Shown: positions 4,613-25,998 of the stretch, piece by piece | Numbering within the stretch: the stretch's first letter is position 1 | How the letters are laid out: the number at the start of each line of letters is the position of its first letter | DNA from: a virus | DNA length: 30,300 nucleotides | UHGV virus genome: UHGV-1280366 | Reading direction: 5' to 3' (one strand) | Position numbers and translations under genes: made by a program | Notes under the pieces: generated by a model | Seen by the model: only the letters and a program-made list of their open reading frames with translations | Told to the model about the DNA's origin: nothing | The model's database searches: none

Positions 4613-5053
4613 CTATTCACAATTAGTGATGGCGTATGTATCAAATATATTGCCATCACTAAATACATACCTATACTCAATCTCTCCGCCAAGGTGAATA
4701 AATGCTTTCATTTGCCTGTTGGAGCAAATGCTCGATTTTGAATAATTTCGCATTACACTCTTTAATTTATTTTCTAAGGTTACATCACCATTATAAACTT
4801 TTGATAAATAGCTGTTGTTGTAATTAAGATGCGCTACAACTAAGAGTTTGTTTAGTATTGCATTTATTGAAACAATAGACATATTATCATTCAATTTTAT
4901 GGGAAGTGACTTTCCTGCTTCTGATGCAATTTTGTTTGCATGTGCACACATATCCTCATTTATTAAATTCTTAAAACATATGTCGTTTGCAAACGAAAAA
5001 ATTGGTAGGATAAACAAAACGGTAGCTGTAATAGCGTGCATCGGCTTAATCAT
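4613..5053 (-). CDS. small hypothetical protein with predicted N-terminal signal peptide (MHAITATVLFILPIFSFA); moron-like
   Basis: ORF in a visibly AT-rich stretch (about 4620-5050) unlike the flanking phage genes; hydrophobic N-terminus ending in A-x-A-like site. Alternative start at 5041. Diverges from the next gene with almost no spacer. Confidence 0.45.
   Translation of the reverse strand: MIKPMHAITATVLFILPIFSFANDICFKNLINEDMCAHANKIASEAGKSLPIKLNDNMSIVSINAILNKLLVVAHLNYNNSYLSKVYNGDVTLENKLKSVMRNYSKSSICSNRQMKAFIHLGGEIEYRYVFSDGNIFDTYAITNCE
4623..4662. repeat. 11-bp perfect inverted repeat (ttagtgatggc / gccatcactaa) with 18-nt spacer
   Basis: Seen directly, at the convergent junction of the 1129-aa gene and the minus-strand gene 4613-5053; no flanking T-tract. 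Confidence 0.6.
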
Positions 5054-5065
5054 TAGGTGACCTTT

Positions 5066-5515
5066 ATGTTCAAGAAGATGATCAACAGATTAATCGGTGG
5101 TAAGGAGGTTAGCAATAAAATTCAACCTCTTATCTTTAAGGATAACTTTTCAGCTTTTGAGTATGCGTGTAAGTATCTTGACACAAGCCTTTCAGCCAAT
5201 AAACCAATGCCAGCCATCATCATACCTGGTCCCAGTGGGGAACAGCCAGTTTTGCTGGATTCTGGAAGACAAAGGGCAATGCTGAAGGTGTGCTCAGCTG
5301 ATGGTGGATTTTTTGTTATTGCCGATTCATCTTACAGCAAAGGACCAAAGCTGAGGATTGGTGATCTTGTTGCTTGGTTGCCTGTGAGTTATGCCGAAGA
5401 ATTAACGGATAAAATAGAAGATCCTCGCTCCGCTATGGTTGGCTTTATATTGGGAACCATTCATCCTGAACTAACATCTACTGGCTGGAAGGGTAAAGAA
5501 AGATTTCGCAAGTAG
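5066..5515 (+). CDS. hypothetical protein (about 149 aa)
   Basis: ORF; track start 5057 is GTG, so ATG 5066 was chosen, preceded by AGGTGA 6 nt upstream; followed by an intrinsic terminator. Confidence 0.5.
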   Translation: MFKKMINRLIGGKEVSNKIQPLIFKDNFSAFEYACKYLDTSLSANKPMPAIIIPGPSGEQPVLLDSGRQRAMLKVCSADGGFFVIADSSYSKGPKLRIGDLVAWLPVSYAEELTDKIEDPRSAMVGFILGTIHPELTSTGWKGKERFRK

Positions 5516-5529
5516 CGTGACATGTCACA

Positions 5530-5553
5530 GGCCGCTTTCGCGGCCTTGTTTTT
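5530..5553 (+). terminator. rho-independent terminator (GGCCGC-tttc-GCGGCC then TTGTTTTT)
   Basis: Perfect 6-bp GC stem, 4-nt loop, T-rich tail immediately after the stop of 5066-5515. Confidence 0.6.
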
Positions 5554-5593
5554 AACGAATGCCACCGCCGCCCGGGTGGGAATCCGCAGACAC

Positions 5594-5614
5594 AAAAAAG
5601 CCCGCGCCGCGGGC
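5594..5614 (-). terminator. rho-independent terminator for minus-strand gene 5620-6252
   Basis: On the minus strand GCCCGCG-g-CGCGGGC followed by TTTTTT (A-run 5594-5599 on the + strand). Confidence 0.55.
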
Positions 5615-5619
5615 TTCTA

Positions 5620-6252
5620 TTAATGCAGTTTATCTTTGCTTATAACCAGTAGTCTGTGGGTATGCACATCTTTATCACTGCCCCAACAGAAATCAGCCCA
5701 CTGGCTATAGAAATCATCCCATGATGTCATGAAGCTAAGAGGTCTATCTTCTTCAGAGCCATCTGAAACGTATACATTATATCCCGGGGTGTTTATAGCC
5801 CAAGAAATCATTCTTTCCCAGAATCTTCTCCCATCGATTGTTTGTTGCTCATCAGATACAACGATCGCATATTGCTCTAGGAAGAACTGAAAAAAAATCT
5901 GAGGCAAACCATGAACAGCACGGTCATGAATAACATTAGGCGTACGCCATACCATGATCTGCGTACATGTTCTTTTGGCTTCGACGATATCTTCCCGAAA
6001 GATTAACTTAACCGCATACACCGTTTCTGGAGTATCGCTGGTAGTAATCATTCTGTAATGATCGCCATTACAAGATTTTACAAGGCGATAACCATAAGGT
6101 GTTGTGAATCCCGGAAGAACGAAATCAACCACACCTTTCGCTAAGTAGCTTTCGGTGTGACTAGTGTTCTTCTCAGACATGTTCAGTTTTCTATCGAAAT
6201 CTGCTTCTGGGATAATGTATGGCATCGCTTTTCTTGTTGTATTTGTTTTCAT
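5620..6252 (-). CDS. hypothetical protein (210 aa), accessory island
   Basis: ORF with ATG at 6252 and GGAGG 6 nt upstream on the minus strand; bracketed by a terminator and an upstream TTACC-N5-GGTAA palindrome. No family recognised. Confidence 0.6.
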   Translation of the reverse strand: MKTNTTRKAMPYIIPEADFDRKLNMSEKNTSHTESYLAKGVVDFVLPGFTTPYGYRLVKSCNGDHYRMITTSDTPETVYAVKLIFREDIVEAKRTCTQIMVWRTPNVIHDRAVHGLPQIFFQFFLEQYAIVVSDEQQTIDGRRFWERMISWAINTPGYNVYVSDGSEEDRPLSFMTSWDDFYSQWADFCWGSDKDVHTHRLLVISKDKLH

Positions 6253-6311: not shown

Positions 6312-6326
6312 TTACCCGTAAGGTAA
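6312..6326. promoter_or_regulatory. palindromic motif TTACC-cgtaa-GGTAA(TAT), copy 1 of 3
   Basis: Seen directly, about 60 bp upstream of minus-strand gene 5620-6252; same motif at 7372-7386 and 7754-7768. Confidence 0.35.
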
Positions 6327-6391
6327 TATTACGCGAATCTACATCACATCGCCAATGATTATTTTAAAGGCACATCCCTGTGCCGCCGCCG

Positions 6392-7102
6392 TCAGAAGAA
6401 CCCTGCCTTGTCGTTGATGTACTCCGCGTGCGTCTGGATATCACGCAGGCATTTGCTCACACCGACGATGTAGCAGAACATGGTGGTCAGCTCCGCCGCC
6501 GCGCCCGATACGTCGTGCCCGTCTTCCTGTAACTGGTTCAGCAGATTCATCAGCAGTGAGTTTTCCGTCAGGCCGAGAACACCAGACGGAGAATGAATCA
6601 GGCTGCGGTAGCCGGGCTTCAGTGGGGCGCTGTAGGTTTTGTTCTCTATCTTCATTGCCTGCATCACTGCTGATGCTGTGGCGTTGGCTACCTGGTCGGC
6701 AACCATCTTTATGCGTTCTTCCTGCGGGAGCGAGTTTTTAATGTAACTTCCTGTGCGGCGGATCTGAGGAAGAACCTCACCTGTAACCCATTTACGAAAG
6801 CGGTAGGGGATAGTGCCTGGTGTTACTGCATCGCGGCAGCGGAGGATCAGTGTGTAGAGGCCTGACTCGGAGATGATGTTGATCTCTTTTACTCGGCTGT
6901 CAAAAATTGCACGATGTTCATGCCCTATGTTGAACATAGACCTTTCATCATCATCCAGTTTTTCAAGTGATTGGGTGACGTTTTGGATACGCAGCGCACT
7001 ACAAACGTCTTGGGCTACAAACCATGGTTGGCCATCGATAATGATGGAACGGATAGGGTTAACAGATTCAAATTTGAAGATGGCAGTTTGAGCATTAGCC
7101 AT
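6392..7102 (-). CDS. Bro-N / KilA-N family antirepressor-like protein
   Basis: N-terminal region (FKFESVNPIRSIIIDGQPWFVAQDVCSALRI...) resembles Bro-N DNA-binding domains of phage antirepressors; start moved to MANAQ (ATG 7102) with GGAGATAA upstream. C-terminal domain is paralogous to the product of 7418-7675. Confidence 0.7.
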   Translation of the reverse strand: MANAQTAIFKFESVNPIRSIIIDGQPWFVAQDVCSALRIQNVTQSLEKLDDDERSMFNIGHEHRAIFDSRVKEINIISESGLYTLILRCRDAVTPGTIPYRFRKWVTGEVLPQIRRTGSYIKNSLPQEERIKMVADQVANATASAVMQAMKIENKTYSAPLKPGYRSLIHSPSGVLGLTENSLLMNLLNQLQEDGHDVSGAAAELTTMFCYIVGVSKCLRDIQTHAEYINDKAGFF

Positions 7103-7258
7103 GGTGGTTATCTCCACTTAGTGATTTTAATCACCACCGCAACGCCAATTACTGGTGGTGAACTGGACAAGGTTGGCGTACCGGCCTAAGTGGTACCGGC
7201 GTCCTTTCGGACCCCTGCCCAGCCCACCATAATTCGGATATAGCTGTGCTTAACGCAT

Positions 7259-7280
7259 AAAAAAACCACGTCTGGCGTGG
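7259..7280 (-). terminator. rho-independent terminator downstream of minus-strand gene 7418-7675
   Basis: CCACG-ccaga-CGTGG hairpin followed on the minus strand by seven T (A-run 7259-7265 on +). Confidence 0.55.
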
Positions 7281-7371
7281 TATGCGCCACTTAGTAACTC
7301 GGGACGCCAATCCCGGCACTGGATTTTGCCAGTGCCCGATTACTATGGCACAAGAGGAGTGCAATGTAAAT

Positions 7372-7386
7372 TTACCGCAAAGGTAA
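7372..7386. promoter_or_regulatory. palindromic motif TTACC-gcaaa-GGTAA(ATAT), copy 2 of 3
   Basis: Seen directly; between the stop of 7418-7675 and the terminator at 7259-7280. Confidence 0.3.
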
Positions 7387-7417
7387 ATATAAGCACTCCA
7401 TTTGGTAATTGCAAACC

Positions 7418-7675
7418 TTATCTGGTTTGTTTTCGTAATTGTTCGGCACAATAGTCGAGATGTGTTTGCAGATCCTGCATAGACATCTGTGAGCTGGTGA
7501 CGTAGTTAATCAGTGCAGTCAGTTCGGCAAGTGGGCCATCGACATTAAATCCATCCTTATCGAGATCCCGGAGTAATTTCATCAAGTGCGATCCCTCCAC
7601 CAGTGACCTGACGCCTCCCGGCGTGTGAATCCTTTCGGTAAATCCGTCTTCCAGTGGATAGTGATACTGCTGCAT
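7418..7675 (-). CDS. short antirepressor C-terminal-domain paralog (about 85 aa), candidate SOS-regulated antirepressor
   Basis: Product aligns with the C-terminal 65 residues of the 6392-7102 protein (shared IH.P.GV..L.E.S.LM.LL..L..DG..V.G..AELT...Y...D.QTH). ATG 7675 chosen for GGAGAAG about 8 nt upstream; alternative ATG 7690. Confidence 0.6.
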   Translation of the reverse strand: MQQYHYPLEDGFTERIHTPGGVRSLVEGSHLMKLLRDLDKDGFNVDGPLAELTALINYVTSSQMSMQDLQTHLDYCAEQLRKQTR

Positions 7676-7694
7676 CTTAATCTTCTCCATGCAA

Positions 7695-7714
7695 TAACTG
7701 TATGTTTATACAGT
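7695..7714. promoter_or_regulatory. LexA (SOS) box, aaCTGTATGTTTATACAGta
   Basis: Matches CTGT-N8-ACAG with an AT-rich spacer (consensus TACTGTATATATATACAGTA); 5-20 bp upstream of the start codons of 7418-7675; overlaps a TATAAA -10-like hexamer on the minus strand. Confidence 0.6.
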
Positions 7715-7753
7715 AGCAAATAATTTGTTTGCTATCCAGCACGTTTTGCAAAT

Positions 7754-7768
7754 TACCTGAAAGGTAAT
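7754..7768. promoter_or_regulatory. palindromic motif TTACC-tgaaa-GGTAA(TAT), copy 3 of 3
   Basis: Seen directly, between the LexA-box gene and the tailspike gene (about 100 bp upstream of ATG 7872). Confidence 0.35.
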
Positions 7769-7871
7769 ATCTATTCATATTCACAGTCTTTCTATCCATA
7801 TGTGGTTTTTCAGGTAATAGAATAACCAGATATGCGGCGCAACGGGTGCTGCGACTATCTGGAGATTTAAC

Positions 7872-9980
7872 ATGACGGTCTCAACCAAAGTTGACCACAA
7901 CGAATACACAGGTAACGGCGTTACGACATCGTTTCCGTATACTTTTCGAATTTTCAGAAAATCAGACCTGGTTGTTCAGGTGTCTGACCTGAACGGGAAC
8001 GTAACAGAATTGGTTCTGGATACCGGTTATACGGTAATTGGGGTGGGAGCTTATAGTGGTGGTACAGTGGTTCTTCCGTCGCCGCTTGCTGCTGGCTGGC
8101 GAATCACTATAGAGCGTGTGCTTGATGTGGTGCAGGAGACTGACCTTCGAAATCAGGGGAATTTTTTTCCAGAAGTTCATGAGGATGCATTTGACTACCT
8201 GACGATGCTGATTCAGCAGTCTTTTTCTGGTCTATCTCTTGCACTCAGAAAGCCATCACGTTTATCAAATTATTATGATGCTCGTGATAACAGAATCCAA
8301 AACTTAGCAAGCCCAATTCTCCCGAACGATGGTGTAAACCGTAATTTTGTAGAAAACCTTTTTATTGATAAAAGCGCATCTGCTTCTGCATTGCGCTCTT
8401 TGCTGGAAAGCGCAGCTGGGGCTGGAATAATTGGTACATTGCAGGGATTAACCGTTCAGTCAGTTTTAGATAATGTAAAAATCCCACTGACGTCATTCGT
8501 GTTTTCTATTCCTGATGATTTTGCTAATGCAGATTCTTTAGCAGAATATCTTGAAAATAGATGCTATACCGGCACGCAAGTAATAGTACATGTCTCAGCA
8601 GGCACTCATAATTGGAATACTCTAAATAAGATTTTTGGGAAAGAGTGGGGTTTTGGCCGACTTAAATTTGTTGGTGAAGGAATGGATTTGACAATTATTC
8701 AGTTTCTTAAACAGGACGGAATTTATGCTGAAGCAGGTGAGTGTTATGGTCATGCGCCACAGTTTCCCGTGAGTGGTGGTGATATAATACCAATATTTAG
8801 TAATTTAACTATATCAGGAATTGACAGAGATTCAGGAATTGATGATCCATATCTTGATTCAATGGGGATAAGGGCGTTTGACGGCGGTGTTGTTGTACTT
8901 GATGAAAGCGTAAGAATAACTCAGTTTTCCAGGTGTGGAGTTATGGCTGAGAGGCATGGTATAGCTTTTGTTCCTGGGGTTAAAGTCGATACTACAGGTT
9001 CTGATTGTTTCGCTGCCTCTGAAGGTGGTTATATCTATTGTCCAGACTCTACAGCAAGCAACCCGAAAGGTCATTGCTACATCGCATATTCTGGAGGGCA
9101 GCTTTATATGCCTAACTGTATTGCTCAGAATGCAGAGACACACAACTCGTCAAATGTAGGGGGATCTGGTCTTGTGTTGACCGGAAGCAGTTACGCTTAC
9201 GCTATTAATCTTCAAACTAAAAACAATGCTCAACGTGGAATTAGTGTGGCGTTAGGGTCTTTTCTACGAGCTGACGGGTTTACTGAGAGTGAAAATATTC
9301 TACCTGTGACTGTTTCGCAGGGTTCCACGTTGGTTTCTCCAAATTGCACAATAAACAAACCAGATGCTCTTGCGCTTTTAATTGAGAAAGGAGGAAAGGC
9401 ATTTTTCCAGGTAGCAACAACTGATAAGTTTACTATGTATGGTAGAGCAACAGTACAGTCAATGGGGGTTCTTCATGCACCAGATGGCGACATAACGAAC
9501 AGTTCAGGCAATTCAATATCTGCAATTAACTCAACAGTTGACGTTGACAGAACAACTTTCCATGGTTCTCCTGCTGTAGCTATCTATGCCATGGATGGAG
9601 CGATGGTTAAATGTAGCAATGGAGAATCTCAGACAACTACAGGGACAACAATTATTGCTCAAAATGCAAAGGTTATCGCTGATGGCTTTAAGGTAAAAGG
9701 AAATCCATCAATAGGGTTTAGAGCAACTATGTCTGGAATAATTTCTGCGAAAAACACATCAGTTATCAAGGCCGGTCAATATGGTTACTTTTCTGAAAAT
9801 ATGGGGGCATTTATTGATGCTACAGGTGCTACAGTAGGAGATGCTTTCTCTGGTTTTAAAGCAATAAACGGAGCCAGAATTAATGCTACGCAATCAGATG
9901 CTACAGGATCATATACAGGAGGTGCTTATAGCCCATCAGTAAATTTAGCAGATGAAAAACTAACAATAATAATAAAGTAA
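7872..9980 (+). CDS. tailspike / tail fibre protein (702 aa)
   Basis: N-terminus (NEYTGNGVTTSFPYTFRIF...DLVVQV) carries the conserved podovirus tail-fibre/tailspike N-terminal adaptor motif; Gly/Ser/Thr-rich C-terminal 500 aa consistent with a beta-rich receptor-binding domain; GGAG RBS; last late gene before attP. Confidence 0.8.
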   Translation: MTVSTKVDHNEYTGNGVTTSFPYTFRIFRKSDLVVQVSDLNGNVTELVLDTGYTVIGVGAYSGGTVVLPSPLAAGWRITIERVLDVVQETDLRNQGNFFPEVHEDAFDYLTMLIQQSFSGLSLALRKPSRLSNYYDARDNRIQNLASPILPNDGVNRNFVENLFIDKSASASALRSLLESAAGAGIIGTLQGLTVQSVLDNVKIPLTSFVFSIPDDFANADSLAEYLENRCYTGTQVIVHVSAGTHNWNTLNKIFGKEWGFGRLKFVGEGMDLTIIQFLKQDGIYAEAGECYGHAPQFPVSGGDIIPIFSNLTISGIDRDSGIDDPYLDSMGIRAFDGGVVVLDESVRITQFSRCGVMAERHGIAFVPGVKVDTTGSDCFAASEGGYIYCPDSTASNPKGHCYIAYSGGQLYMPNCIAQNAETHNSSNVGGSGLVLTGSSYAYAINLQTKNNAQRGISVALGSFLRADGFTESENILPVTVSQGSTLVSPNCTINKPDALALLIEKGGKAFFQVATTDKFTMYGRATVQSMGVLHAPDGDITNSSGNSISAINSTVDVDRTTFHGSPAVAIYAMDGAMVKCSNGESQTTTGTTIIAQNAKVIADGFKVKGNPSIGFRATMSGIISAKNTSVIKAGQYGYFSENMGAFIDATGATVGDAFSGFKAINGARINATQSDATGSYTGGAYSPSVNLADEKLTIIIK

Positions 9981-10077
9981 GCAATATGCTATAGTTCATG
10001 ACTTATTAATGATAACTATATGCACAAAGCTTTGCACTTGATTGCAATGCTTTGTGCCATTCTATAGTTAAGGTGGA
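9981..10077. other. candidate attP region between convergent tailspike and int genes
   Basis: 97-bp AT-rich spacer with ctatagtt direct repeats (9989-9996, 10061-10068) and a 9-bp inverted repeat GCACAAAGC...GCTTTGTGC; position by analogy to lambda/P22 attP adjacent to the int 3' end. Core not identifiable without attB. Confidence 0.35.
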
Positions 10078-11236
10078 TCACTCCACCTTTTCATCAAGCC
10101 AGTCCGCCCACCACTGCATCATTTCTCTGCGCTTATCTAGATACTGAGCATGGTTGTAAATACCGCGCACAGATCCGCCGTTGGCATGTGCCAGTTGCAC
10201 TTCAATAGCGTCAGCAGGCCATTCATGCTCGTTCATAATCGTGCTGAATTCATGCCTGAATCCGTGACCGCTTTCCAGACCTTCATAGCCGATTTGTTTG
10301 ATCACAAGTAGCACCGCGTTCTCGCAGATTGGCTTCTTCTTATCGTTGCGTCCGGCAAAAACAAACTCTGATACTGGTTTAGTGATGGAGCTTAGCGTAG
10401 TGAGAAGTTCAACCACCTGGTCTGACATCGGGACCACATGAATTTTGCGTCCCTTCATCACACTGGCGTCGATGGTGATAATCCTGTTTTCAAAATCGAC
10501 GTTCTTCCATTGCATGGAGCGAAGCTCTTTCGTTCTTAGGGCTGTGTAGCGTAAAACTTTGGTCGCAATGAGCGATACGATACTTCCTGAAAATGTTGCC
10601 AGTGCTTTGTTGAATGCCGGGATCTGGTCTGCAGGAAGAAACGGGAAGTTCTTCTTGCGGTATCCCTTCATGGCGTCAGCAAGGTCAGGTGCCGGGTTAT
10701 ATTTAGCCCTACCAGTGACAATAGCGTAACGGAAAACCTCGCCGCATCTTCTGCGGGCTTTGTTGGCTCGCTCCATTGCACCGCGATCTTCAAATCTGCG
10801 GATTACTTCCAGCAGTTGCATCGGCTCAATATCCAGAATCTCGAGACCGCCGATGATGGGTAAAATGTCGTCATCAAACATTTTGGCAAGTTCAGTCGCA
10901 TACCCTACAGACCAGACTTGCTTCTTGTGCTCGTACCATTCCTTGTAAATGGCGCTAAAGGAATTGTTGTTAGACGAAGCCTTTTTCGCTTTTACCGGAT
11001 CTATGCCAACCGAGATGTCTTTCCTCGCAGTCCATGCTCTATCCCTTGCCTCCTGCAAAGTCATAAGCGGATATTTTCCGACAGTCAGGATTTTCTCCTT
11101 ACCGTCAATCTTGTAGCGAAGCTGCCATACCTTTTTCCCGGATACAGGGACATAAAGATACAGGCCATTACCATCGAGAAGGCGGTATGGTTTTTCTTTC
11201 GGCTTTGCTGCTTCAATCTGCTTAACGGTTAGCATG
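10078..11236 (-). CDS. int: tyrosine integrase (P4-like, N-terminal arm-binding domain)
   Basis: N-terminus MLTVKQIEAAKPKEKPYRLLDGNGLYLYV matches the arm-binding domain of P4-family integrases; C-terminal region has catalytic-domain features (HGFRH, tyrosine near the C-terminus). Track start 11271 is GTG; ATG 11236 chosen. Confidence 0.9.
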
Positions 11237-18077: not shown

Positions 18078-18210
18078 TTTTTGGGACTCCTGGCTGATTA
18101 AGTATGTCGATAAGGCGTTTCCACCCGTTACGTAATTTACGGGTGATTCGTTCAAGTAAAGATTCGGAAGGGCAGCCAGCAACAGGCCACCCTGCAATGG
18201 CATATTGCAT
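18070..18210 (-). CDS. cIII: CIII protease-inhibitor (stabilises CII)
   Basis: MQYAIAGWPVAGCPSESLLERITRKLRNGWKRLIDILNQPGVPKNG is near-identical to lambda CIII as recalled; AAGGAG RBS. Confidence 0.8.
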   Translation of the reverse strand: MQYAIAGWPVAGCPSESLLERITRKLRNGWKRLIDILNQPGVPKNG

Positions 18211-18270
18211 GGTGTGCTCCTTATTTATACATAACGAAAACGCCTCGAGTGAAGCGTTATTGGTATGCAT

Positions 18271-19429: not shown

Positions 19430-20080
19430 TTATGGAAGGTTTGCTAGTTTTGCATCGACAACTACGCCGATGATTTTGCAGTTTCCGTTGATCTCGATCA
19501 TCGGATATTGTGGGTTAAGTGGTTTTAGAAACTTCCTGCCTGCATCAATAACTAACTTCTTGAAAGTTGCCTCGTTTTCTCCTTCGAGCTTTGCAACTAC
19601 CAGTTTCCCGTTACGCGGCTCTACTTCAGGATCGACAAGTATTATCATTCCTTCAGGGATACTGAGACCGGCCGGAGCCGTCATTGAGTCTCCCTTCACG
19701 TCCAACCAAAACGAATCTTCTGAACAGTCTACGGTTGTATCGTACCAGTTATCTATTGCACGCTTATGATATGGTTCTACAGCTTCCATCCAGCATCCTG
19801 CGCTCACCCAGCTAATCAGAGGGAATGACCCTCTTGGATCATGCCTACTGTGATAGGCAATGTTTGAAAGACTTTCCTCTCCTTTCATCAGATAGTCAGG
19901 GGAACACTTCAACGCATTAGCCAGGGCGAGAAGATTCTCTCCATTTGGCTCTGTCTCAGAGCGTTCCCACTGAGATATGGCAACATTAGACACGCCGACC
20001 ATCTTTCCAAGTGCGGCCTGCCTGATCTTGAGTTCTTTTCTCCGAGCGCGAATGCGCTCTCCCATCAATTGAGTTTTCAT
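19430..20080 (-). CDS. c2: c2/CI repressor (HTH plus LexA-like S24 autopeptidase domain)
   Basis: Protein is near-identical to P22 c2 as recalled (MKTQLMGERIRARR...VVDAKLANLP); Ala-Gly cleavage site and Ser/Lys peptidase domain. Confidence 0.95.
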   Translation of the reverse strand: MKTQLMGERIRARRKELKIRQAALGKMVGVSNVAISQWERSETEPNGENLLALANALKCSPDYLMKGEESLSNIAYHSRHDPRGSFPLISWVSAGCWMEAVEPYHKRAIDNWYDTTVDCSEDSFWLDVKGDSMTAPAGLSIPEGMIILVDPEVEPRNGKLVVAKLEGENEATFKKLVIDAGRKFLKPLNPQYPMIEINGNCKIIGVVVDAKLANLP

Positions 20081-20150
20081 AGTTAAGACATCTTAAATAA
20101 ACTTGACTTAAGATTCCTTTAGTGGATAATTTAAGTATTCTTTAATTTCG
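20081..20150. promoter_or_regulatory. OR operator region with pR (-35 TTGACT 20103-20108, -10 GATAAT 20125-20130); divergent pRM expected
   Basis: Three P22-type operator palindromes (e.g. AGTTAAGACATCTTAAAT, AATTTAAGTATTCTTTAATT) between c2 and cro; sigma-70 hexamers with 16-bp spacing. Confidence 0.65.
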
Positions 20151-20160
20151 GAGCGAGTCT

Positions 20161-24983: not shown

Positions 24984-25387
24984 CAATGCTTTTAATTCAA
25001 CCTGGATTTGGCCTTAGCATCAAAAAAGGGCACATGTTTGGCGAGAAAGAGTCTCAACGAAAAATGGTGTCGATACAGTTGCCATTTATCAGTATTTGTT
25101 GGCTAAACAGGGAGGCAACAAATTATTGGTATACATGCGCCAGAGCAGCATTTAACGACCCTGACTGGTTTGTGAATAACCACCACGCAGTTCGTCAGGC
25201 AAAGAGAAAGGCCAATACGACATACATGAAGGCGTATCGAAAAGCATGGAAAGAACACCGGGATCGATACCAGCAAGACATGGAAAAGCTTGAATCAGAA
25301 AACATGGAATTAAGACGAAAGCTTGGTGAAGCAAAACGAGACATTGATGCTTACAAGCGACTTTTTAATGGTGAAAGCCATGCTTAG
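24980..25387 (+). CDS. hypothetical nin-region protein (NinX-like by position)
   Basis: ORF between ninE and ninF; track start is GTG, ATG 24980/24986 with GAGGAA RBS; its 3' part lies inside the duplicated unit. Confidence 0.5.
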
Positions 25388-25556
25388 CCCATCCCAATCC
25401 CTTCAATACCAGAAAGAAAGCGTCGAGCGGGCTTTAACGTGCGCTAACTGCGGTCAGAAGCTGCATGTGCTGGAAGTTCACGTGTGTGAGCACTGCTGCG
25501 CAGAACTGATGAGCGATCCGAATAGCTCAATGTACGAGGAAGAAGACGATGAGTGA
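25380..25556 (+). CDS. ninF: NinF (copy 1)
   Basis: [58 protein letters not shown] matches lambda NinF as recalled. Confidence 0.8.
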   Translation: MLSPSQSLQYQKESVERALTCANCGQKLHVLEVHVCEHCCAELMSDPNSSMYEEEDDE

Positions 25557-25671
25557 TTACCTGAAATGGTATCTCTGCCACCGCTGGTTAATTAAGTTTG
25601 CTGTAAAAGACTGGATGACAGCGGATGCCAACAAGCTTAAGCAAAGAGAAAGGCCAATACGACATACATGA
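25549..25671 (+). pseudogene. truncated chimeric copy of the 70-aa gene created by the duplication junction (MSDYLK...[14 protein letters not shown])
   Basis: Same start context as 25991-26203 but the frame runs across the junction into a new stop after 40 codons. Confidence 0.45.
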
Positions 25672-25821
25672 AGGCGTATCGAAAAGCATGGAAAGAACAC
25701 CGGGATCGATACCAGCAAGACATGGAAAAGCTTGAATCAGAAAACATGGAATTAAGACGAAAGCTTGGTGAAGCAAAACGAGACATTGATGCTTACAAGC
25801 GACTTTTTAATGGTGAAAGCC

Positions 25822-25998
25822 ATGCTTAGCCCATCCCAATCCCTTCAATACCAGAAAGAAAGCGTCGAGCGGGCTTTAACGTGCGCTAACTGCGGTCAGA
25901 AGCTGCATGTGCTGGAAGTTCACGTGTGTGAGCACTGCTGCGCAGAACTGATGAGCGATCCGAATAGCTCAATGTACGAGGAAGAAGACGATGAGTGA
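25822..25998 (+). CDS. ninF: NinF (copy 2, identical duplicate)
   Basis: Identical sequence to 25380-25556, shifted by 442 bp. Confidence 0.75.
   Translation: MLSPSQSLQYQKESVERALTCANCGQKLHVLEVHVCEHCCAELMSDPNSSMYEEEDDE

Follow-up and report, generated by a model that had tools for sequence, protein, structure and literature searches.

Three TTACC-N5-GGTAA palindromes in a mosaic phage genome are very probably operators of a Rep-type repressor, orphaned by recombination

The viral genome sequence UHGV-1280366, analysed here over 30,300 bp (the window, by which we mean this whole stretch of DNA), carries in its accessory island three exact copies of a palindrome, TTACC-N5-GGTAA (TTACCNNNNNGGTAA). 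We consider it very probable, on comparative grounds, that these are operator sequences recognised by the Rep-type repressor of epsilon15/SPC32H/phiV10-like phages (Uetakevirus) and that recombination has orphaned them. The main evidence is the positional association of the motif with rep genes. On this reading, the element would belong to a known kind, the Uetakevirus Rep operators, and its only unusual aspect would be that the mosaic window has lost the matching repressor.

Results

An exact pattern search for TTACCNNNNNGGTAA, accompanied by a search allowing one mismatch, found three copies in the window (0.03 expected; a count of three was reached by none of 100 dinucleotide-preserving shuffles) and no further site at up to one mismatch. 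The three sites, read as operators, are the following.

6312-6326, strandless: putative operator copy 1, TTACCCGTAAGGTAA; exact match, upstream of a 210-aa accessory gene
7372-7386, strandless: putative operator copy 2, TTACCGCAAAGGTAA; exact match, between candidate tandem leftward promoters of an isrK/C4/Bro-N-ant operon
7753-7767, strandless: putative operator copy 3, TTACCTGAAAGGTAA; exact match, in the intergenic region that separates ant from the tailspike gene

A first-pass annotation of this DNA, made from its letters alone, had described this triple, each copy followed by (A)TAT, in non-coding DNA and about 100 bp before the tailspike gene. Our searches bear this out: the trailing bases are TAT, ATAT and TAT for copies 1, 2 and 3, all three copies are non-coding, and 104 nt separate the end of copy 3 from the tailspike ATG (7872). 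The positions given for copies 1 and 2 were right, while the third copy, placed at 7754-7768, really lies one base further left. The same annotation had reasoned that a similar density genome-wide would speak against an operator; the window holds these three sites only, and the exact motif is absent from the ~13 kb of chromosome flanking the related prophage of E. coli DEC9B. Copy 1 falls in the gap between the minus-strand genes at 5620-6252 and 6392-7117 and has a counterpart in the Rep-encoding DEC9B prophage at L091:26613 (L numbers are our locus labels). Copy 2, located 31 nt beyond the stop of a 90-aa gene, has orthologous sites in phiV10 (20497), TL-2011b (34385) and the DEC9B prophage (27674). 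The position of copy 3 is also occupied in SPC32H (20013-20027) and in five other genera. A separate observation is that copy 2 is the centre of a larger inverted repeat (7351-7404). The phiV10 equivalent of this repeat (L089:20479-20529) forms a perfect palindrome of 18+5+18 bp, in which the 5-bp spacer of copy 2 has the opposite orientation to that in the window (TTTGC versus GCAAA).

The strongest indication of what the palindrome does comes from phages that encode Rep. The complete SPC32H genome contains the motif ten times exactly and 18 times at up to one mismatch, against 0.67 expected. Its 155-bp gap between rep and the divergent gene holds tandem sites at 34390, 34407 and 34437 (two exact, one with a single mismatch), three more lie beyond the other, left end of rep (33528, 33604 and 33666), and the site at 20013 between ant and the tailspike gene corresponds to window copy 3; the remaining sites are intergenic, ahead of the small terminase gene and of gene 004 and behind the replication genes. 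The site map is the same in phiV10, TL-2011b and the DEC9B prophage. This parental, Rep-encoding phage type thus has ~10-14 sites per genome, all intergenic and promoter-associated, which indicates a dispersed regulon and not background.

The association with rep extends well beyond these genomes. From IMG/VR we collected 160 rep-gene loci with two queries, of which 143 were distinct and full-length, fell into three Rep classes and were scanned over 3.6 kb each. All but 2 of the ~530 exact motifs in them lie no more than 100 bp upstream or 200 bp downstream of rep; the motif sits in the rep-cro gap and just downstream of rep. The Rep classes share 42-66% overall identity and keep the N-terminal helix-turn-helix (HTH) region, including an invariant NLVNRW, and a common operator fits because this region is conserved across them. 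As described in PMC9638917, SPC32H Rep sits as a tetramer on palindromic DNA sites and is broken up by tetrameric Ant. The first-pass annotation had found the palindrome typical of the operator of a dimeric regulator, and its co-location with rep supports an operator for an oligomeric protein; from the same co-location we infer that Rep binds it.

The window itself lacks this protein. A tblastn search of the 30.3 kb for a Rep homolog found none (best E 1.5), and a three-class Rep profile, run with all filters off against the six-frame translation, likewise returned no Rep (best E 1.6). The immunity region is instead P22-like, with a 216-aa HTH_3 + Peptidase_S24 repressor, a P22_Cro protein and cII, and its intergenic gap carries P22-type operators. 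A side observation in the P22-like early-left operon is a lambda cIII thermoregulator (RF01804, 88.5 bits, 18165-18223, minus strand). It is because Rep is absent, with P22-type C2/Cro immunity in its place, that no cognate regulator is evident in the window, as had been remarked before; what no longer holds is that none can be named, since the same palindrome flanks every rep examined.

Regulators encoded in the window were considered and set aside. The resident C2-type repressor has P22-type AnTTAAG-N4-CTTnAnT sites in its OR (right operator) region at 20080-20160, where TTACC-N5-GGTAA does not occur even at two mismatches. A dedicated regulator inside the island was rejected, as the 146-, 152- and 210-aa proteins match no DNA-binding family in Pfam, PHROGs, PADLOC or NCBIfam. 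The 90-aa protein, for its part, is the antirepressor Ant. Nor is the palindrome a LexA box: it does not fit CTGT-N8-ACAG, and a separate, true LexA box lies at 7698-7713.

How operators and repressor probably came apart is visible in the mosaic structure of the window. Its left part (1 to ~9724) is epsilon15/phiV10-like, with positions 1 to ~8000 being 98.9% identical to their closest relative, the DEC9B prophage, whose Rep is 100% identical to that of phiV10 and has operators beside it. The right part is HK620/P22-like from 8644, and positions 10,000-30,300 match HK620, JEP4 and other P22-like phages at 96-97%. The joint lies in the tailspike gene.

7872-9980, plus strand: chimeric tailspike gene; holds the recombination joint, crossover within 8644-9724

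An epsilon15-like contig (L253) has 98.7% identity over 7702-9724, a contig without any motif (L252) has 96.3% identity over 8644-10161, and a P22-like prophage of a complete genome matches the window from 8644 through the integrase. As L253 and L252 overlap within the tailspike gene, the crossover falls in the receptor-binding part common to both parents. The junction is absent from all complete E. coli genomes and phage records searched, and no record of the exact tailspike protein was found elsewhere. In the right part, we also observed an exact direct repeat of at least 300 nt (25199-25498 and 25641-25940, spacing 442 nt), which duplicates a 77-aa open reading frame (phrog_672) in a nin-like region.

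Conservation of the motif in accessory islands was assessed in 87 ant-homolog loci from six genera, including Citrobacter, Erwinia, Superficieibacter and Pseudocitrobacter. The motif is present in 87/87 of them, with 1-5 copies each, invariant arms and 25 different spacers. Its surroundings are strongly shuffled, and this raises the question of whether the palindrome could itself be a site of recombination, i.e. an integron attC-like cassette junction at which accessory genes and promoter modules are swapped. The mosaic breakpoints of the island (loci L001-L087) do coincide with the motif edges: in locus pairs sharing only the upstream sequence, similarity is lost mostly at motif positions 9-16, and in pairs sharing only the downstream sequence at -4 to +2. 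Moreover, the 30 sequence clusters found upstream are paired with the 32 found downstream in 46 different ways, single modules having up to 6 partners, and the inverted spacer of copy 2 could be counted on the same side. We nevertheless regard such a junction site as very improbable. No recombinase gene accompanies the island, and the same motif occupies the classical OR/OL (right and left operator) positions beside rep without cassette exchange. Breakpoints at a 15-bp sequence common to unrelated promoters are also expected from ordinary or microhomology recombination and subsequent selection for intact promoter-operator units, and template switching in palindromes is known to invert spacers.

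The alternative that the palindromes are operators is in line with their placement relative to promoter elements. When the ant-homolog loci are read in gene orientation, a -10 pattern, T-A-n-T-A-T, recurs across 29 upstream sequence clusters; it is made up of the five preceding bases plus the first T of the motif itself. A TTG-rich -35 is found 16-18 bp above that -10. The opposite strand has no such -10 signal, save for a few promoter modules in flipped orientation. The candidate promoters in the window, all on the minus strand, are as follows.

6326-6355, minus strand: candidate promoter TTGGCG-18-TAATAT at copy 1, read from sequence; -10 (6326-6331) overlaps the last base of copy 1
7386-7414, minus strand: promoter-like TTGCAA-17-TATATT at copy 2, from a consensus scan; -10 abuts copy 2
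7342-7370, minus strand: promoter-like TTTACA-17-CATAGT (with TG), from a consensus scan; -35 lies 1 nt from copy 2
7766-7794, minus strand: weak candidate promoter TAGAAA-17-GATATT at copy 3, read from sequence, 8/12 consensus positions; -10 abuts copy 3

As consensus matches, these overlap the palindromes as an operator should at copies 1 and 2 and more weakly at copy 3. Relatives of copy 2 with unrelated upstream sequence keep a -35/-10 pair at the same distance (TTGATT-18-TATCAT, TTGAAA-18-TATTAT). Copies 2 and 3 are furthermore followed, after 1-2 nt, by the -35 of a second promoter further downstream. At copy 2, this is TTTACA-17-CATAGT, which would start an isrK-like RNA near 7335, the 5' end of the Rfam isrK match; at copy 3, its -35 is TTTGCA, ahead of the LexA-controlled ant promoter.

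This geometry also bears on whether the palindrome might act at the RNA level and not as a DNA site, as a hairpin that stabilises the 5' end of a transcript or terminates transcription. Each copy can indeed fold into a stem of 5-7 bp (-3.3 to -6.8 kcal/mol). Yet the arms are invariant over ~250 instances without compensatory changes, and one-mismatch variants (TCACC, GGTGA, GGTAT) break pairing on one side only. The stem is AT-rich and is followed by no T-run, and the true terminators of the region lie elsewhere. The hairpin would not even be transcribed whole, because the -10 ends on the first T of the motif and the start would lie inside it. An RNA function is therefore extremely improbable.

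Two further observations concern the same intergenic regions. A second palindrome, AACC-N6-GGTT (AACCAnATAnGGTT), is found at 7414-7427, immediately ahead of the copy 2 promoter's -35, and a one-mismatch copy (7794-7807) has the same geometry at copy 3. Other occurrences are in phiV10 (L089:20539, 24736 and 33132) and SPC32H (L088:34799). It tends to lie just upstream of the -35 where the -10 abuts a Rep operator, usually 20-45 bp from the Rep site, and it may be the site of an activator or of a second regulator. Before the tailspike gene, conserved blocks at 7795-7867 (plus strand) are compatible with a rightward promoter, TCCATA-17-TAGAAT, in which other genera have TTCATA for TCCATA. A GC-rich inverted repeat (7821-7841 / 7847-7867) comes next, within the tailspike 5' leader, and the arrangement hints that this gene has a promoter of its own.

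Neighbouring genes and regulatory RNAs

The candidate promoters lead into the following genes and RNAs.

7698-7713, strandless: perfect LexA box, CTGTATGTTTATACAG; in front of ant, sole match in the window (0.05 expected)
7418-7690, minus strand: ant, 90 aa; SPC32H Ant ortholog (PDB 5d50_E, E 4.4e-47), probable start M6 at position 7675
7296-7348, minus strand: a1/b1 target model of C4 RNA (RF03163, 44.3 bits, just below the gathering score of 46.7); overlaps isrK
7259-7335, minus strand: isrK-like RNA (Rfam RF01394, 67.2 bits), with an intrinsic terminator at 7265-7281
7151-7234, minus strand: C4 antisense RNA (Rfam RF01695, 66 bits, E 6e-11)
6392-7117, minus strand: 241-aa Bro-N antirepressor; Pfam Bro-N (3.6e-19) at the N-terminus, C-terminal 80 aa an Ant domain
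5620-6252, minus strand: 210-aa accessory gene (phrog_1349), downstream of copy 1; no Pfam, PADLOC or NCBIfam match

The 90-aa gene is 88% identical to the annotated ant of SPC32H, and the LexA box before it is kept in five other genera. Kim and Ryu (2013) reportedly found SPC32H ant to be controlled by LexA and its product to inactivate Rep, a non-cleavable repressor. In the Bro-N protein, residues 160-236 match PDB 5d50_E (E 1e-13), and its Ant domain is 42% identical to the 90-aa Ant. Its true start is likely the ATG at 7102, with a GGAG ahead of it inside a nonamer repeat, ACUAAGUGG (in RNA sense; repeat D9). This nonamer occurs twice, in the isrK part (7277-7295) and at the Bro-N ribosome-binding site (7104-7122), and is complementary to the C4 loop at 8/9 positions. 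One Ant domain is thus found in two antirepressor genes, the small one behind a LexA box and the Bro-N fusion behind a C4 RNA, which suggests that they are independent induction inputs on the same repressor. Elsewhere in the island, we noted a 146-aa protein (4613-5053, minus strand, phrog_8772) with a signal-peptide-like N-terminus, encoded on the opposite strand between a 1129-aa virion gene and a 152-aa gene (5057-5515, plus strand, phrog_9944), as well as a back-to-back terminator pair at 5529-5618.

Discussion

Taken together with the site maps, these features suggest the following mechanism. Rep, an HTH protein, appears to control some 10-14 dispersed promoters, which would include those on both sides of rep (OR, OL) and those of ant, the c4/Bro-N-ant operon, accessory genes, terminase, lysis and integrase. 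The first base of each site in the window would coincide with the last base of a leftward -10 hexamer. Rep bound there would extend over about -8 to +8 and thereby prevent initiation, and since copies 2 and 3 also lie just above a second -35, one bound repressor could shut a tandem promoter pair. The genes under such control would be those of the LexA-regulated small Ant, the Bro-N::Ant-domain fusion (also gated by the C4 antisense RNA) and the 210-aa accessory protein. A crossover in the receptor-binding region of the tailspike gene would then have linked the virion and accessory module of the epsilon15-like parent to a genome of the HK620/P22-like kind, whose immunity is C2/Cro. Unless another prophage provides Rep in trans, the three promoters should be unrepressed here, with LexA and the C4 RNA as the sole controls left.

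An important question is whether Rep is the main binder at all. The sites persist in a window without Rep, and other binders can be proposed: the product of the Cro-like gene that diverges from rep, a host factor, or the 241-aa protein through its Bro-N domain. Cro-type proteins of lambdoid phages use the same operators as the repressor, and Bro-N is a predicted DNA-binding domain. Co-location with rep alone cannot separate Rep from Cro, because a Cro-like protein may share the sites. We still judge a main binder other than Rep to be very improbable. SPC32H has the sites and no Bro-N gene in its island; the sites cluster at either end of rep, also at the one that does not face cro; and we know of no E. 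coli regulator with this half-site and spacing. Persistence in the recombinant, in turn, needs no function if the crossover is recent, and the left part remains 98.9% identical to a Rep-bearing prophage.

Several caveats weigh against our preferred reading, namely that of orphaned Rep operators. The published SPC32H operator could be a different sequence; a full-text literature search outside the SPC32H and epsilon15 primary papers returned nothing relevant on TTACC/GGTAA as a phage operator, and the paper on vB_EcoP_ZX5 defines no operators. A divergent Cro-like protein may use the same sites, and the promoter assignment at copy 3 is weak. As the window encodes no Rep, the sites may be without function in this particular genome. 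Finally, the recombinant may be a viable phage, but it may also stem from the fusion of two resident prophages or from an assembly that joined two genomes via the shared tailspike segment, and in the latter two cases Rep could be present in the same cell.

Should the window represent a real phage, a bolder scenario could be drawn, which we think unlikely. Rep operators and two Ant-domain antirepressors would persist without Rep and would be silent only where a resident epsilon15-type prophage supplies it; SOS or infection would then lead the Ant proteins to induce that resident prophage, and the 15-bp operator would serve as a preferred joint for the shuffling of promoter modules and cassettes.

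The wider implications are more modest. An apparently orphan motif probably belongs to the repressor/antirepressor switch known from experiments on SPC32H, and sequence alone yields a genome-wide operator map for the epsilon15/SPC32H phage group. This map suggests a dispersed, P1-like regulon of ~10-14 promoters and not the two-operator layout of lambda. It also appears that recombination in a shared tailspike receptor-binding module can part operators and antirepressors from their repressor. While no new principle is involved, this could be relevant for predicting the inducibility and cross-talk of mosaic E. coli prophages.

Comparison with known systems

The closest known system is the Rep/Ant/LexA lysis-lysogeny switch of the epsilon15-like Salmonella phage SPC32H (Kim and Ryu 2013; Kim et al. 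2016; PDB 5D4Z/5D50). Both have an epsilon15-like virion module, the Ant ortholog, the LexA box before ant and, at the corresponding position upstream of ant, a palindrome, which in the window is identical to the sites flanking SPC32H rep. Unlike SPC32H, the window is without rep and has P22 C2/Cro-type immunity with an S24 autocleavage domain, and only its island contains a second, Bro-N-fused Ant domain behind isrK/C4 RNAs as well as extra accessory genes.

The immI region of P22 occupies the same genomic place, between virion genes and tailspike gene, and has the same task of silencing an antirepressor. The first-pass annotation had drawn an analogy to its Mnt/Arc operators while remarking that the sequence differs. 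We agree that the operator sequences are unrelated, and the regulator here would be the primary immunity repressor and not a dedicated secondary one; no island open reading frame has a match to the Arc or Mnt (ribbon-helix-helix) family. In Gifsy-1 of Salmonella (IsrK/STnc1160/AnrP; PMC4825925), the elements follow in the same order: an isrK-like RNA that has a terminator to itself, then a C4-like RNA, then an antirepressor gene. The excerpted text of that paper does not mention operator/repressor control of the isrK promoter, nor does it use the word 'operator', whereas the window has a Rep-type operator between candidate tandem promoters.

For copy 2, the analogy that serves best is therefore not P22 but the immI region of P1/P7, in which Op51, an operator of the primary repressor C1, stands in front of c4 RNA, icd and ant. 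In a similar arrangement, copy 2 precedes a leader with isrK/a1b1-like sites, a C4 antisense RNA and a Bro-N antirepressor with a C4 target repeat at its ribosome-binding site. C1 also has many operators dispersed over the genome, as appears to be the case for Rep. The P1 operators are asymmetric 17-mers, whereas the window site is a symmetric 15-bp palindrome (5-N5-5). There is no icd, the Bro-N/Ant-domain fusion is unrelated to P1 Ant, and a scan of the open reading frames of the island and of the small ones in the early region found no C1-like protein. What the window presents is a P1-type immI module set inside an epsilon15-like island, its parts being the isrK-like RNA and its a1/b1 sites, the C4 RNA and the Bro-N antirepressor.

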